A DNA stretch of 64,000 bases, taken from Escherichia phage tuntematon. Position numbers and translations under genes: made by a program. The notes under the pieces are model-generated. The model did not search any database. It had not been told where the DNA came from and was given only the letters and a program-made list of their open reading frames with translations. The DNA is taken from sequence record NC_052660.1; one strand, 5' to 3'. This document shows positions 7,383 through 29,189 of the stretch, in pieces (the first letter of the stretch is position 1; each line of letters starts with the position of its first letter).

Positions 7383-7574
7383 TTAGATCTCGTCACCTAT
7401 ATAATCAGATCTGTTCTTCTCTGTCATACGCTTAAACAATTCTTGCATATGGCTTATAGCTTGCAAGGTGTCTTCTTCCAGGCTTGAATCAACATAATCA
7501 GGATCATTCTTCACCTTGCTATGGTTGTGATAGCGCAACGCTGCTAATACCTTTCTAACTTGTTCTGTATTCAT
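7383..7574 (-). CDS. hypothetical early protein
   Basis: ORF-track ORF; RBS AGGAATAA. Confidence 0.5.
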   Translation of the reverse strand: MNTEQVRKVLAALRYHNHSKVKNDPDYVDSSLEEDTLQAISHMQELFKRMTEKNRSDYIGDEI

Positions 7575-7585
7575 TTTATTATTCC

Positions 7586-7720
7586 TTAAAACCAGGTGCC
7601 AACCGTTTCCAATAGGTCACTGACTACCAGGACAACATTGATCAGCACATATTCAACCATGAAAGGGATAAGCGCCAGTGTCGCTACTATGATCCCCATT
7701 GTGATGATTACCTTTCTCAT
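7586..7720 (-). CDS. candidate 44-aa small membrane protein
   Basis: Hand-translated MRKVIITMGIIVATLALIPFMVEYVLINVVLVVSDLLETVGTWF; start 2 nt after stop of 7723..8007; not in ORF track. Confidence 0.35.
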   Translation of the reverse strand: MRKVIITMGIIVATLALIPFMVEYVLINVVLVVSDLLETVGTWF

Positions 7721-23417: not shown

Positions 23418-23764
23418 AGATTATCAAAATAACTAGCAAATAAAAGACGGCCCTCTAATCGTGCCTTCCTTTGATCTTCAGCATACACGATTTCTGGATT
23501 ACCACTATCAATAAAAGCATTCTCCATCTTTTCTAAAATATTTAACCACTCTCTTCTACCTGTCTCCTCTTCTTCATCTGTATACGGCGCACTTCTATTT
23601 GGATACAAAACACGCATCAGTTTAGTGGGGATCATGACAAACGTGCTATTGTTTGCCTTCTCACGGAAGGCTTTAATTCCTGCATAGATTACCTTCCCCA
23701 AAGCTGCATCCAAATCCATCAGGTCACTTTCTTCTATTTGAATTTCATCGTGTACAATTTTCAT
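23408..23764 (-). CDS. hypothetical protein
   Basis: ORF-track ORF. Confidence 0.55.
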   Translation of the reverse strand: MKIVHDEIQIEESDLMDLDAALGKVIYAGIKAFREKANNSTFVMIPTKLMRVLYPNRSAPYTDEEEETGRREWLNILEKMENAFIDSGNPEIVYAEDQRKARLEGRLLFASYFDNLWS

Positions 23765-24048
23765 CGTGCATTCTCCCGATCTGCATCTAATTTCGACAAG
23801 AAAGCTGTATACTCTTCAGAACCTTGGTGTAAAAACATGCGATAAGAGCTTACCAGTTTCTTGGTCGTTGTATAACGTTCCATTTCCCCAACAACACCTC
23901 CACCTAGTGTGTAGAGCACAATACCTTCAACTCCAACATGGGTTACTACTTCAACCAAGTCTGTGTTATCCCAATGGTAGTTAGGTGACACAATAAGATC
24001 GCCCACTGCCAGTTTAATGTTTGCTACTTCATTTTGTGAATAATACAT
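23761..24048 (-). CDS. hypothetical protein (95 aa)
   Basis: Start moved 33 codons in (MYYSQNEV) with strong RBS AGAGGAGAA. Confidence 0.5.
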   Translation of the reverse strand: MYYSQNEVANIKLAVGDLIVSPNYHWDNTDLVEVVTHVGVEGIVLYTLGGGVVGEMERYTTTKKLVSSYRMFLHQGSEEYTAFLSKLDADRENAR

Positions 24049-24085
24049 TTGGTTCTCCTCTCTTAATTGATGGAAATAGTATACC

Positions 24086-24577
24086 TCACCACATAATCTC
24101 GCGCAACTCTTTTTCTTCTTTAAAATTACGCAAGTCTTCCAGTGCACGGTTTAGGTCTTCTTCCGTCTCTGCTTTCTGGACTTTTTCCATCATTTTCGCA
24201 ACAATATTTTTCTTAACTTGCAAATCTGGAACAGGCATACGTTTTTCCATTTCATAAACTTCTCGTTTATGGCGTTCCTCCATCTCTGCTTTTTCTTTTA
24301 CCCAATCCGCCTCGTCCATTGCACCTTTGCAGACACAAGTGTAACCTTTAATAGTATAATCACCATGTTCAATACCAGGTTGAAGAGCTAAGGCTTCATT
24401 ACCACAATACGCGCACAACGGACGACCTGGCATTTTCAAAGTTTTGGTAGCCTTAGCGCCACATTGACTATCCCAGCTTGTTTTATAACTGGAACCGTTG
24501 TCTCCGTGAGAACGACCAACCAAGAAGTTACGGAAGAAACCCATAGCACGTTCGTCAATGTAATCAGGGTAAGCCAT
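24086..24577 (-). CDS. hypothetical Cys-rich protein
   Basis: ORF-track ORF; CAYCG...CVCKG pairs. Confidence 0.55.
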   Translation of the reverse strand: MAYPDYIDERAMGFFRNFLVGRSHGDNGSSYKTSWDSQCGAKATKTLKMPGRPLCAYCGNEALALQPGIEHGDYTIKGYTCVCKGAMDEADWVKEKAEMEERHKREVYEMEKRMPVPDLQVKKNIVAKMMEKVQKAETEEDLNRALEDLRNFKEEKELREIMW

Positions 24578-24589
24578 TATATTCTCCTT

Positions 24590-24883
24590 TCACATTAAGA
24601 CACGTTTTGTGTCGATGGGTGCATTATCAAACATGTTAAGAACATTGTCAAGCAGTTTTACTAATTCGTTTGTAATTTGTTCCTTTGAACGGGAGGAAGT
24701 GAGCACTTTGCTTTCACCAACAATATGCATAACTTTTATAGGAGCGTCTAAAATGATGTTGTGCTGACGATCCTCTTCAAAAGAAGCCAACCATTTCTCA
24801 TTGTTACCGTGCAAGGCTACAATCACACCAAAACCGTTAATTGTTTCAGAAATATTCTTAGTTGCTAAAGTAATGTTCATCAT
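24590..24883 (-). CDS. hypothetical protein, first gene of leftward operon
   Basis: ORF-track ORF adjacent to divergent promoter region. Confidence 0.55.
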   Translation of the reverse strand: MMNITLATKNISETINGFGVIVALHGNNEKWLASFEEDRQHNIILDAPIKVMHIVGESKVLTSSRSKEQITNELVKLLDNVLNMFDNAPIDTKRVLM

Positions 24884-24915
24884 CTACCTCTCTTGTTAAT
24901 GTTCATACATGATAC

Positions 24916-24931
24916 CTGAAAATAATTTCAG
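24916..24931. promoter_or_regulatory. inverted repeat between divergent operons (operator candidate)
   Basis: ctgaaa-ataa-tttcag palindrome. Confidence 0.35.
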
Positions 24932-24939
24932 ATCAAGTG

Positions 24940-24967
24940 TTGACATGCTTTTTAGTCCTGTTAAGAT
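24940..24967 (+). promoter_or_regulatory. sigma70-like promoter of rightward block
   Basis: TTGACA 24940-24945, 16-nt spacer, TAAGAT 24962-24967; RBS GAGAGGAG, ATG 24998. Confidence 0.6.
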
Positions 24968-24997
24968 CAACTCATACAAAACGAGAGGAGAAAACAA

Positions 24998-25426
24998 ATG
25001 CAAAACATGACTTGGACCGAAGCTAAAGAAGCGATGCAGAATGGCAAACGTGTGAAGCACGAATACTTCTGTAGTGATGAGTGGTTTGAGATGCAATACG
25101 GTGTTATTCTGGATGAGCATGGCTACAATATGTCAAACTGGTTCCGAGGGGAAGCTTGGCAAGAACAGGGTTGGTTTGTAATTGAAAAAGAAGACAGTAA
25201 GGAAGAAGGCGTGTTGTCTAATGTAGAACGCGAGATGAGGGAAACAAAGATACCTGCTTTGGATTTTGTATACCTGGAAGAACTTGTGGCAGCATCTTTT
25301 GTAGCAGGAAACCTTTGGAATACACCTGTTAGCCGACTGGAGAACCAAAATAACCCGTCTGCTCGTAATCACAAGCTTTATAAGGGTAAAGGTCACAACA
25401 AATTAAAGAAAGGAAAGAAGAAATGA
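24998..25426 (+). CDS. DUF2829-like protein (Tad2-like candidate) with basic C-terminal tail
   Basis: N-terminus MTWTEAKEAMQNGKRVKHEYF resembles the xFxEALEALKxGKKVRRxGW signature I associate with DUF2829; tail KLYKGKGHNKLKKGKKK. Confidence 0.5.
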   Translation: MQNMTWTEAKEAMQNGKRVKHEYFCSDEWFEMQYGVILDEHGYNMSNWFRGEAWQEQGWFVIEKEDSKEEGVLSNVEREMRETKIPALDFVYLEELVAASFVAGNLWNTPVSRLENQNNPSARNHKLYKGKGHNKLKKGKKK

Positions 25427-25572
25427 TCTACAAAAACAAGTTCACTGGTTGTCTCCGTAAATTTATCGATAAGAAAGGGTTTGTTTCTCTTGACAAGGGT
25501 GTTACGTGGGTGCAAAATGGCACTTCAGAACAACTGATCAAGGCTTTACCTTACTATGAGGAGGTTTTATGA
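25423..25572 (+). CDS. candidate 49-aa protein
   Basis: Hand-translated MIYKNKFTGCLRKFIDKKGFVSLDKGVTWVQNGTSEQLIKALPYYEEVL; ATGA overlaps on both sides; not in ORF track. Confidence 0.4.
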   Translation: MIYKNKFTGCLRKFIDKKGFVSLDKGVTWVQNGTSEQLIKALPYYEEVL

Positions 25573-25829
25573 CACTTTATCACGTAACTACAGAAGGCGA
25601 CTGTGAAGGCCGCACTACAAAAGATTTGGGGTATGTTGAAGCAGATTCACCTGAACATGCTATCAAATACCTGCATTCCATCGGGAAGTATGCGGGTTAT
25701 GAGTATACTATCTACGAGGTTGAAATTATTAACCTTATACAAGTGGCAACTCCTATGGCAGAGTTGAAACATCTTAAGGCAAAAGTAAGACCTGGTGTAG
25801 TGTCCGATTACAAAGGGGAAGTAAAGTGA
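25569..25829 (+). CDS. hypothetical protein
   Basis: ORF-track ORF; RBS GAGGAGG. Confidence 0.55.
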   Translation: MTLYHVTTEGDCEGRTTKDLGYVEADSPEHAIKYLHSIGKYAGYEYTIYEVEIINLIQVATPMAELKHLKAKVRPGVVSDYKGEVK

Positions 25830-26038
25830 GTGGATGGATTAAAGTATCTGGTACCGAGAATGTTCCTATCGGAGAGTGGCTTGTAATCATGGCAAACGGC
25901 AAGAAGGGATTCTGTGAAGTTAACAAAACACGCAATGGCACGATAGCTGTTATCAATGGTCATTTTTATTTTGACTTGGCACCTGTGATCGCATACCATG
26001 CACTACCAACATATGAAGAGGAGATTAACAATGGCTAA
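25826..26038 (+). CDS. hypothetical protein
   Basis: ORF-track ORF, GTG start overlapping previous stop. Confidence 0.5.
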   Translation: MSGWIKVSGTENVPIGEWLVIMANGKKGFCEVNKTRNGTIAVINGHFYFDLAPVIAYHALPTYEEEINNG

Positions 26039-26354
26039 CAAAGAACCACACGTATATACTGCACTGGTAAAGCACTTGAACAAAGAACGTAACAGGATCA
26101 TTGCAGATTATCGTAAATTTAAACGTAGTAGTCTAAATCGTAAATACATGCCACATGCAGCTTTTGACGCTACACGTGCAGTATTTCGTGCAAAGATTGC
26201 GGAAATGGATAATCTGCTTAAGCTTGCACGATTATCTATTCAGGCATCCAAAGTAACAGGGGTCACTCACTTCTTTGACTTCGATACTAAAGCACTATAT
26301 GCACCAGAAGCAGGTGAACAATTGATTTATCTACTTACCAAAAATAAGTGTTGA
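26031..26354 (+). CDS. hypothetical protein (107 aa)
   Basis: Start moved to ATG 26031 (MANKEPHV) behind RBS GAGGAG. Confidence 0.5.
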   Translation: MANKEPHVYTALVKHLNKERNRIIADYRKFKRSSLNRKYMPHAAFDATRAVFRAKIAEMDNLLKLARLSIQASKVTGVTHFFDFDTKALYAPEAGEQLIYLLTKNKC

Positions 26355-26523
26355 CTTTTTTCAAAAAATATGCTACCCTAACCCCGAAGGGTCGAGCGAT
26401 AGCGAGTATAGATTATGTAATAGATTAATCTCTATCGTTAGATGTTCGAAGAATAGAGATTTAAGTACTTGTTCTTATCGGTAGATGATCGTAAGATCAA
26501 GAACAATAATAGGAGAGTATGTT
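26355..26523 (+). promoter_or_regulatory. structured intergenic region with repeats and hairpins
   Basis: Hairpin acccgaagggt; 8-bp inverted repeats atctctat/atagagat and ttgttctt/aagaacaa; direct repeats tagatta x2. Confidence 0.35.
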
Positions 26524-26721
26524 ATGTTAGTCAGTGAAATACTACCTGACTCTAATGGTAATCAGATCACTGTTGATTGGTTTCCTGGTACTGGTACACT
26601 AGATCTAACTGCTGAATGGTCTGGTGATATTTATGGAGAAGGTGTATTATCATTGTCTACAGAACAAATGATCATCCTTCGTGACTTCTTAATTAGTTTA
26701 GATCTAGGAGAAAACAAATGA
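26524..26721 (+). CDS. hypothetical protein (65 aa)
   Basis: Start moved to ATG 26524 (MLVSEIL) behind RBS AGGAGAG. Confidence 0.5.
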   Translation: MLVSEILPDSNGNQITVDWFPGTGTLDLTAEWSGDIYGEGVLSLSTEQMIILRDFLISLDLGENK

Positions 26722-26987
26722 GTAATACTTCTGTTGAGTTTATCGAGAAATCCCCTGTTCCAAAGTTATACCGTTTATCTGAAATTGAACCTATGTCTGT
26801 TTTCTACTACTACGATTCAGAAGTAAGTGAACAAGAACGGGACTACTACTTAGCTACAGATACAGGTGCAGTGTGCTTAACAGGTTCTCGTGCAGGAGAA
26901 TACATTGTGACTAGTCGTTTTAATGAAGCAGATTACTGTTGGGCTAAGGTTGAAACTAAGATTGTCATCAACATCACTAATCATTAA
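26718..26987 (+). CDS. hypothetical protein
   Basis: ORF-track ORF, ATGA overlap. Confidence 0.55.
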   Translation: MSNTSVEFIEKSPVPKLYRLSEIEPMSVFYYYDSEVSEQERDYYLATDTGAVCLTGSRAGEYIVTSRFNEADYCWAKVETKIVINITNH

Positions 26988-27009
26988 GACTAATCTGACA
27001 AAGAGTTAC

Positions 27010-27310: not shown

Positions 27311-27484
27311 ATGGGAGATAAACAAAGTAACATCCGTTACGCGCTTTATGGAAGAATGGGTGCAGATTGTGAATGGATGCTTCTGTCGCAACGTATACCC
27401 TCTTACAAAGAGGCTCTTGAAAAAAGAGACTATTACAAACAAACATGGCGTTTTGTCATTTGTAAACACTATTTGGAGGCGTGA
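27311..27484 (+). CDS. candidate 57-aa protein
   Basis: Hand-translated MGDKQSNIRYALYGRMGADCEWMLLSQRIPSYKEALEKRDYYKQTWRFVICKHYLEA; RBS AAGGAGGC; not in ORF track. Confidence 0.4.
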   Translation: MGDKQSNIRYALYGRMGADCEWMLLSQRIPSYKEALEKRDYYKQTWRFVICKHYLEA

Positions 27485-27792
27485 TGAGTACATTATCATT
27501 AGCAGTTATGGTACATCAACAGTATGAAGAAGCTGTGAAAGATTCAGAAAACCCTTCTACATTGGTGTTTGAAGATCGGACTGGTCTTAAATGGGTAGAA
27601 TCTGGGGATGAACTCTACTTTTGGTATCCACAAGGTTGCACAAGTAATTCTAATTTGTATAGTTATGAATTGGAGTATCGTGCGCCTGTAGACGAAGATG
27701 ATAATTACATCATGTATTATGTTAATAATGGTTGCGGTGAAACGTTTAATGTAGTATTCTCTAAAGCCTTGAAGTCCGACGAGGAGATGTAA
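27484..27792 (+). CDS. hypothetical protein, tandem paralog 1
   Basis: TLSLAV...AVKD...YRAPV.EDD.YIMYYVNNGCGE aligns with 27792..28097. Confidence 0.55.
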   Translation: MSTLSLAVMVHQQYEEAVKDSENPSTLVFEDRTGLKWVESGDELYFWYPQGCTSNSNLYSYELEYRAPVDEDDNYIMYYVNNGCGETFNVVFSKALKSDEEM

Positions 27793-28097
27793 TGCGGCAC
27801 AATACGACTTTAAGTTTGGCAGTTGCAGCCCACATGCTGTACAATGATTCTGTGAAGGATGAGTTGTCGCCTGTGAGTTTAGCTTTCTATCTGATAGATA
27901 GGGATTGGATGTTCTCTGGTGAGGATGAAATCTACTACGTAAATTCACGCGGTTTTATTGAAAGTTTTGAACTTGAACATCGCGCACCAACAGCAGAAGA
28001 TGATCGTTTTATTATGTTCTGTGTAAATGATGGTTACGGAGAGGTATATGACGTAGTATTCTTCAAAAACCGACAGAAGACTGAAGAGGAATTCTAA
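27792..28097 (+). CDS. hypothetical protein, tandem paralog 2
   Basis: TLSLAV...SVKD...HRAPTAEDDRFIMFCVNDGYGE aligns with 27484..27792. Confidence 0.55.
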   Translation: MRHNTTLSLAVAAHMLYNDSVKDELSPVSLAFYLIDRDWMFSGEDEIYYVNSRGFIESFELEHRAPTAEDDRFIMFCVNDGYGEVYDVVFFKNRQKTEEEF

Positions 28098-28820: not shown

Positions 28821-29189
28821 ATGAAGGTATTAAACTTTTACCATTTAGGCAAAACAATCCCAGAGGGTGCTGTTTATATTGGTAGAGCAATGCCACATAT
28901 GGGACTAAAAGCCTCTAAGTTTGCAAATCCTTTTAAGTTAAAAGATGATGAACCACGAGGATCAACCATACAAAGGTATAAAGAGTGGTTGTGGGAGCAA
29001 ATTCGTTGTGGTAAGATCACTCTTGAAGATTTATTAGAGTTAGAAGGGAAAGATTTAGTTTGCTTCTGCTCACCTCAACCTTGTCATGGAGATGTATTGG
29101 TAGCAGCCGTAGCTTGGGCTAGAAAAGAGTGGGACAAAAGGCATCCTACTTATGTAGACAATTATTGGATTTGGGAGGAGAATTTTTGA
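28821..29189 (+). CDS. hypothetical protein with conserved Cys/His motif
   Basis: Motif FANPF...CFCSPQPCHGDVL; family not assigned. Confidence 0.55.
   Translation: MKVLNFYHLGKTIPEGAVYIGRAMPHMGLKASKFANPFKLKDDEPRGSTIQRYKEWLWEQIRCGKITLEDLLELEGKDLVCFCSPQPCHGDVLVAAVAWARKEWDKRHPTYVDNYWIWEENF

Follow-up and report, generated by a model that had tools for sequence, protein, structure and literature searches.

We analysed a gene of Escherichia phage tuntematon (NC_052660.1) that lies at positions 24998-25426 of a 64,000-nucleotide stretch of this sequence record (hereafter, the window) and encodes a protein of 142 amino acids (aa). From profile comparisons and structure modelling we place the N-terminal domain of this protein (hereafter, the N-domain) in the Tad2/AcrIIA7 fold superfamily, as a remote member of short form that falls outside the reach of the corresponding Pfam model. 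A first-pass annotation had described the product as a DUF2829-like candidate anti-Thoeris sponge. The DUF2829-like part of this proposal holds for the fold and for remote homology, but not for membership in PF11195 (DUF2829/Tad2-like), while the anti-Thoeris part was left unsupported and is somewhat disfavoured. In our view the protein probably serves as an anti-defence or host-takeover factor, and sponging of glycocyclic ADP-ribose (gcADPR) is unlikely. Its parts, delimited on an alignment of 20 homologues and an AlphaFold2 model of the single chain, are as follows:

24998..25426, + strand: coding sequence, 142 aa plus stop (ATG start, TGA stop; match to PHROG 22208).
24998..25186, + strand: N-domain, residues 1-63, with the predicted short-form Tad2/AcrIIA7 fold (model and homologue alignment).
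25187..25246, + strand: acidic linker, residues 64-83, with a net charge of -3 (variable between homologues in both length and sequence; predicted local distance difference test score, pLDDT, 65-74).
25262..25309, + strand: amphipathic helix motif D-[FYM]-x-x-L-E-x-x-hydrophobic (LDFVYLEELVAASFVA), residues 89-104 (predicted helix 90-103).
25352..25423, + strand: polybasic tail NPSARNHKLYKGKGHNKLKKGKKK, residues 119-142, net charge +10, predicted disordered (homologue alignment and model).

The N-domain is modelled with high confidence (pLDDT 94-98 across residues 1-62) as a helix (residues 6-14) followed by three strands (18-21, 30-33, and 36-38), a short helix (53-56) and a last strand (59-62), with a tight hairpin at Y34-G35, where Tad2 has its beta2-beta3 loop. 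Four independent lines of evidence connect the domain with Tad2. The five top matches of the model in a Foldseek search of the PDB were all SPO1 Tad2, in agreement with the family kinship that the first-pass annotation had anticipated, and AcrIIA7 was named as the best structural match. When the family profile was run against all PDB sequences, three matches only were obtained at E<=10; the first was SptTad2 (8wjd) and the third ModTad2 (9eib), both matching through the N-terminal helix and the C-terminal 'DW-x-V-E' strand. We also aligned a 138-sequence N-domain profile by hhalign with 17 bona fide Tad2 sequences, including SPO1 Tad2, MoTad2, and HgmTad2 (Table S2 of Hadary et al., 2025). The resulting probability was 93.9% (P 1.6e-7) with a score of 37.6, as compared to at most 12.2 for 30 column shuffles and 14.2 for the reversed alignment. 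Moreover, weak PF11195 matches were detected in 20 of the 141 distant family representatives (best E 2.9e-4), and some relatives of 60-63 aa already bear the name DUF2829/Tad2-like in BFVD. Compared with the Tad2 proteins of known structure (SPO1 Tad2 8SME/8SMF and ModTad2 9EIB), the common traits are the small size and phage origin of the protein, the N-terminal helix with F/W-x-E-A-x-x-A-[LM]-K-x-G-K-x-V, the antiparallel sheet after this helix and the C-terminal G/D-W-x-[IV] strand. In turn, the invariant H21, E28, E40, and G42 distinguish the 142-aa protein from these Tad2 proteins, as does its 80-residue C-terminal extension with the polybasic tail. The N-terminus MTWTEAKEAMQNGKRVKHEYF quoted in the first-pass annotation as resembling DUF2829 proteins begins at the second methionine (residue 4) rather than at the annotated start MQNM..., which agrees with the MQN... 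start seen in all homologues.

The coding status of the gene is confirmed: 24998-25426 is a real, conserved gene and more than a chance open reading frame (ORF). The 142-aa protein matches PHROG 22208 from end to end (E 1.7e-87), at least 80% of it is encoded in 69 phage records, and among six diverged orthologues synonymous and non-synonymous substitutions are mixed in a pattern typical for coding regions. Database searches provided no functional label. Pfam, PADLOC, and single-sequence PDB searches with the 142-aa protein returned no match, its PHROGs matches are confined to families of unknown function, and a word-indexed protein search retrieved close homologues only, none of them with Pfam domains. 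The orthologues phAPEC8 YP_007348609 and ASO2A_246 are both labelled 'hypothetical protein', and we found no literature on the 142-aa protein or on the short-form family. A scan of viral contigs yielded two loci only. The window gene looks mosaic with respect to its relatives: its N-domain (…KHEYF…QYGVILDEHGYNM…) is like that of the IMG/VR contig L004, and no difference from the ASO2A/ZCKP1 type is seen in its linker, helix, and tail. This pattern of matches (window versus L001 and L004) suggests recombination at the linker between two modules. A few database entries of the family are truncated or split (P0011, P0015, P0021, and P0170-P0172).

The N-domain is distributed much more broadly than the full-length protein. 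Residues 1-63 match PHROG 3474 (E 5e-30), and a tblastn search located the domain in 438 phage records; the ORFs are mostly about 60 aa long and come from phages of Klebsiella, Escherichia, Salmonella, Citrobacter, and Erwinia. When 1.8 billion representative proteins were searched exhaustively with a profile, 203 matches were obtained at E<=1e-3, nearly all spanning the N-domain only, either solitary or with unrelated extensions. Short-form proteins occur in the pre-early repeats of T5-like phages and the early regions of T4-like phages, as well as in Felix O1-like, Vequintavirinae, and Phapecoctavirus genomes. The stand-alone PHROG 3474 proteins of about 60 aa are true relatives of the N-domain (Foldseek E 9e-8 to 1e-4, template modelling score 0.77-0.93), and several are listed as 'DUF2829 domain-containing' in UniProt/BFVD, e.g., A0A8S5RI74, A0A2K9VAK2 of Klebsiella phage KpS110, and A0A482JJB6 of Shigella phage KPS64. 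They have in common with the N-domain the H-F-E-E-G-W signature and a location in early or accessory regions, yet they have neither the linker and helix nor the polybasic tail. Both relatives whose surroundings we inspected lie in such regions. One, of 65 aa, is encoded in the left terminal repeat of the T5-like Epseptimavirus poul149 (L002 2501-2698, record positions 7432-7629); the left terminal repeat of T5 is the first DNA to enter the cell and bears pre-early host-takeover genes. The other is found in the nrdH-gp55 region of a T4-like Klebsiella phage (Jiaodavirus). Within the window itself there is a single short Tad2-fold domain, and no canonical Tad2 was found in its 64 kb. Among the remaining family members, P0043 (175 aa) is a natural protein with two short Tad2-fold domains in tandem and could model domain pairing. 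We rejected P0055 as a member, considering it a false lead and probably a false positive: this eukaryote-like protein of 2,489 aa has 15 Tudor/Agenet-like repeats (GDRVEARYKGGSKYYKGKI.RVNADGSYNIDYDDGD) and matched the family profile at E 3e-7, which shows a similarity between small-barrel repeats and the beta-hairpin part of the profile.

We determined that the residues most conserved in the short-form family are concentrated on the elements which in Tad2 build the ligand pocket. The near-invariant positions of the N-domain are A9, G16, H21 (89%), F24 (96%), E28 (99%), E40 (95%), G42, and W59, and W48/F49 are also counted among the invariant residues of the family. H21, F24, and E28 lie in or beside the beta1-beta2 loop, while E40 and G42 lie just past the strand equivalent to Tad2 beta4. 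Apart from these, the N-terminal helix and all of the pocket-building elements (the beta1-beta2 loop, the beta4-equivalent strand, the loop before alpha3, and alpha3) are retained. In SPO1 Tad2, gcADPR is contacted by W25, N26, W73, and D79, and also by I63, T65, D67, H71, S76, and T78 (10.1101/2023.05.01.538930). The hydrophobic contacts have equivalents in the N-domain: F24 stands for W25 (F in 96% of the family), W48 for W73 (F or W), and I37 for I63. Of the polar contacts, D67 and H71 are replaced (D67→H41 and H71→M45); the register of this alignment is uncertain in the C-terminal third. The site equivalent to that of Tad2 thus appears, from its conservation, to be under selection with a different chemistry, i.e., a histidine, two glutamates, and aromatics, which argues for a ligand other than gcADPR. 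Beyond gcADPR, the ligands bound by the Tad2 family include His-ADPR, cUMP/cCMP, N7-cADPR, and CBASS signals (10.1101/2025.08.24.671296).

The polybasic tail, KLYKGKGHNKLKKGKKK, is the most conserved part of the protein; over residues 119-142 it varies little or not at all among the 20 homologues, and it is invariant from K126 on. The first-pass annotation had pointed to a long, basic and atypical C-terminus, and our data agree with both attributes: beyond the net charge given above, the tail is absent from all 17 Tad2 proteins and present in only about six of the 150 listed family representatives. No regular secondary structure is predicted from residue 119 to the end (pLDDT 52-65 across residues 111-142). 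Four to five distant relatives (P0022, P0023, P0031, and P0038) show no similarity, in either sequence or length, between the N-domain and the tail, yet these proteins still end in K-[LI]-x-K-G-[KR]-G-H-N-[KR]-L-[QK]-K-[RG]-K-K-K and keep the D-[FYM]-x-x-L-E helix motif. The latter recurs in P0022, P0023, P0025, P0031, P0038, and P0171, with otherwise unrelated flanks. Pairwise differences in the tail amount to 40 synonymous versus 8 non-synonymous, compared with 116 versus 156 in the N-domain; hence, purifying selection acts on the tail peptide. We considered a DNA or RNA element as the cause of the tail invariance and mostly rejected it, since synonymous changes do fall within the tail. No second copy of the tail motif was found in the window, and a profile search with the 45-aa tail retrieved fragments of the same family only, so that, within the scope of these searches, the tail is not a module used by other families.

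Basic C-terminal peptides of another kind are found elsewhere in the family. SecA, like many small proteins, ends in the SEC-C motif (PF02810), a basic stretch that binds zinc. At least three to four N-domain family members end in this motif (P0097, P0106, and P0117; e.g., ...CICGSGKKYKKCCK in P0117), in the form C-x-C-G-S-G-x-K-[FY]-K-x-C-C with 'QNNE' or 'NRNS' before it, which suggests that the domain is recurrently accompanied by a basic peptide at the C-terminus. Like the KGKGHNKLKKGKKK tail, the SEC-C motif is basic, contains glycine and takes the same position at the extreme C-terminus. A functional analogy between the two remains speculation. In the window protein, 'QNNP' precedes the basic tail, and this may hint at a common origin with the SEC-C tails. 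We rejected the possibility that the tail is a degenerate SEC-C zinc motif: there is no PF02810 match, and a zinc site is impossible because the tail has no cysteines and one invariant histidine only.

The window genome belongs to a phAPEC8-like myophage of the genus Phapecoctavirus (subfamily Stephanstirmvirinae). Over positions 24000-27000 it shares 99.5% identity with the Escherichia phages SKA64 and vB_EcoM_EP57, and 96-97% with phAPEC8. The 142-aa gene opens the rightward block, just as the first-pass annotation had it, following a 114-bp gap (24884-24997) that separates it from the leftward gene ending at 24883 (a divergent junction); the rightward block of phage vB_EcoM_ASO2A opens with ASO2A_246 in the same way. 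The gene is framed by these elements:

24940..24967, + strand: near-consensus promoter-like site of the sigma-70 type, TTGACA-16 nt-TAAGAT, and a TG ahead of the -10 element (consensus scan, 10/12 matches).
24983..24990, + strand: Shine-Dalgarno-like GAGAGGAG, with AGGAG inside, 7 nt upstream of the ATG (direct reading).
25423..25572, + strand: next small ORF, 49 aa, whose ATG overlaps the stop of the 142-aa gene (ATGA; sequence reading).

The position equivalent to 24940-24967 is annotated as a promoter in phage vB_EcoM_ASO2A. The location behind a strong promoter proposed in the first-pass annotation is thus borne out as far as the sequence of the site is concerned, and the early timing itself remains conjectural. 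The ATGA stop/start overlap is also annotated in ASO2A, phiWec188, ZCKP1, and AV125, and suggests translational coupling with the 49-aa ORF. At 25406-25426, the last six codons of the tail (AAG AAA GGA AAG AAG AAA) and the ATGA are identical at the DNA level in the six diverged orthologues, while the tail codons upstream of them do carry synonymous changes. These six codons overlap the ribosome-binding site (RBS) of the 49-aa ORF, and may therefore be under a double constraint, imposed by the peptide and by the RBS or the translational coupling of the next ORF. The A-rich run at 25406-25426 could be slippery, although there is no evidence of frameshifting.

Taking these observations together, we tentatively read the 142-aa product as an early anti-defence or host-takeover protein: its minimal Tad2-fold domain would recognise a ligand different from gcADPR, with the helix and polybasic tail serving to oligomerise and/or tether it. 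According to this model, host RNA polymerase would transcribe the gene at the start of infection, and the N-domain would bind its ligand at the Tad2-equivalent site, with a specificity unlike that for gcADPR. As ligand we envisage a small molecule, probably cationic or derived from a nucleotide, or, less likely, a host protein. The helix and tail would form a module for oligomerisation and/or tethering, with the tail holding or concentrating the protein on a polyanion, e.g., nucleic acid or the ribosome, and the end result would be anti-defence or host takeover. The early timing, the ligand binding, the tethering by the tail, and the anti-defence role are the parts of the model that we infer. 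The data show the gene with its conservation and promoter sequence, the fold and remote homology of the N-domain, the deletion, the pattern of residues, and the selection that acts on the tail.

A number of points weigh against this reading. PF11195 matches neither the 142-aa protein nor its 19 close homologues, even at E<=10, so that the profile check put forward in the first-pass annotation came out negative. Tad2 proteins are homotetramers that sequester gcADPR in pockets at the protomer interfaces, and their helix alpha2, located in the beta2-beta3 loop, forms a V-shaped dimer together with beta2 (10.1101/2023.05.01.538930). Both known activities of the Tad2/AcrIIA7 fold require the tetramer (10.1101/2023.05.01.538930; PMC13133391), and the oligomeric state is a key property across all known sponges. 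Yet, end-to-end hhalign alignment leaves a 24-residue gap opposite SPO1 Tad2 residues 38-61, and the roughly 24 residues missing from the N-domain align to the very beta2-beta3 loop where alpha2 is located. The polar gcADPR contacts are replaced (N26 by C25, a position with T, S, or C across the family, and D79 by the variable A53/W54), and D79 is nearly invariant among Tad2 proteins. The N-domain is acidic, with a net charge of -6 (family mean -4), in contrast to the positive RNA groove of AcrIIA7 and to typical sponge pockets; however, charge alone does not decide the matter, as SPO1 Tad2 is itself net-negative (-3). The C-terminal half of the AlphaFold2 model is of low confidence (pLDDT 52-80). 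In addition, we infer early expression of the gene from the promoter consensus, and nucleic acid or another polyanion as the partner of the tail is the obvious guess from its composition.

Of the other explanations, the closest to the first-pass annotation is that of a canonical Tad2, i.e., a homotetrameric sponge of 1''-3' gcADPR that blocks type I Thoeris. It would account for the common fold and remote homology, for the aromatic equivalents (F24 and W48) of the tryptophans that sandwich gcADPR and for a place behind an early promoter, which suits an anti-defence gene, and the acidic charge does not exclude it given the -3 of SPO1 Tad2. Nevertheless, we regard it as very unlikely in view of the missing PF11195 match, the loss of N26 and D79, the deletion of 24 residues from the alpha2-bearing loop, the family signature in which the invariant H21, E28, and E40 have no Tad2 counterpart, and the basic tail, which bona fide Tad2 proteins do not possess. 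The behaviour of short homologues points in the same direction. For the three shortest Tad2 homologues in Table S2, i.e., Tad2_75 (69 aa), Tad2_80 (73 aa), and Tad2_84 (60 aa), no activity was seen against Thoeris (types I, II, and IV), CBASS (two systems), or Pycsar (two systems) in any assay that gave transformants (10.1101/2025.08.24.671296); thus, none of the seven signalling systems was inhibited by these proteins of 60-73 aa. A nucleic-acid-directed factor, for which we see a modest chance, would use its tail, alone or with an oligomerised core, to bind host or phage RNA or DNA, in a manner resembling the AcrIIA7-tracrRNA interaction, with the effect of inhibiting a host process or defence, or of organising DNA at an early stage of infection. 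The charge (+10), predicted disorder and exceptional conservation of the tail speak for it, as does the basic SEC-C motif found at the same position in other family members. AcrIIA7 inhibits Cas9 through its binding of tracrRNA, for which it uses a positive groove of the tetramer core with K58, K66, K71, K93, and R101 (PMC13133391), while the core of the N-domain is acidic and its invariant charged residues are glutamates and histidine instead of lysine or arginine. The extra module of AcrIIA7 is an N-terminal helical head plus an 'extended' insertion, unlike the C-terminal extra part of the 142-aa protein. Furthermore, the Pfam and PADLOC/PDB searches revealed no match to a known nucleic-acid-binding family, and most family members are tailless, so that the tail cannot explain the conserved function of the N-domain. 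AcrIIA7/HgmTad2 (PDB 8KBI) is also reported as a sponge of gcADPR and cyclic dinucleotides. We know of no link between E. coli phAPEC8-like phages and type II-A CRISPR.

It is also conceivable, albeit distinctly unlikely, that the protein is an adaptor or inhibitor that binds protein and no small molecule, the aromatic and acidic surface of its small helix-plus-beta domain gripping either the protein's own tail (autoinhibition) or a basic stretch in a host protein. This would be in line with the aromatic and acidic nature of the conserved residues, with the fusion of the domain to many unrelated C-terminal extensions, as expected for a modular binding unit, and with the Tudor-like repeat protein P0055 having been caught by the profile. 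No partner is known, however, and the conserved residues reside on the elements that form the small-molecule pocket of Tad2. As for a non-functional gene, either a chance ORF or a decaying remnant, the complete lack of functional annotation and the few truncated or split database entries would fit it, but the gene is conserved over its full length in more than 60 genomes, and this, together with the strong promoter and RBS, the confident fold and the purifying selection, reduces the probability of such an explanation to almost nil. A further candidate, the anti-TIR factor Atd1 reported for Phapecoctavirus, was rejected, being an unrelated MazG-like pyrophosphatase.

No family of phage immune-signal sponges is more widespread than Tad2, whose range of ligands also includes cyclic di- and trinucleotides and even tracrRNA. 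The short subfamily, present in hundreds of genomes of coliphages, Klebsiella phages, and Salmonella phages and often in early regions, would add well-studied phages, both model and therapeutic, to the range of this family, and might lead to a new ligand. It is possible, though doubtful, that the short 'H-F-E-E-G-W' Tad2-fold proteins are unrecognised, widespread anti-defence ligand binders of virulent enterobacterial phages with a specificity unlike that of known Tad2, and that the Phapecoctavirus version is anchored to a polyanion by the invariant KGKGHNKLKKGKKK. If this is true, the latter would add a new principle, that of a tethered or localised sponge or binder. The fold family was already known; the 142-aa protein represents a short-form Tad2-fold subfamily of it, and bears in addition a distinctive invariant polybasic tail. 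The tail is an unexplained, testable feature of what is now a well-characterised hypothetical protein, and although no unusual mechanism has been demonstrated so far, the protein offers a concrete and cheap target for ligand and anti-defence screens.

Several genes in the vicinity deserve mention. The first gene of the leftward block (24593-24883, - strand) encodes a DUF7325 protein (PF24011, E 5e-24). On the same strand, the ORF at 24089-24577 encodes a protein of 163 aa without a Pfam match, whose cysteine pairs (CAYCGNE…CVCKG) suggest a zinc ribbon followed by a charged helical C-terminus, and the ORF at 23764-24147 a 'Phage tudor domain' protein (PF24144, E 5e-25). In the rightward direction, the adjoining ORFs at 27481-27792 and 27792-28097 (+ strand; 103 and 101 aa) are clear paralogues, representing a tandem duplication in the early region, and have in common the motif …LSLAV…ELE[YH]RAP…DD.[YF]IM[YF].VN[ND]G.GE…VVF.K…. 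The ORF at 28821-29189 (+ strand), which belongs to the same rightward block, encodes a DUF4326 protein (PF14216, E 1e-21).

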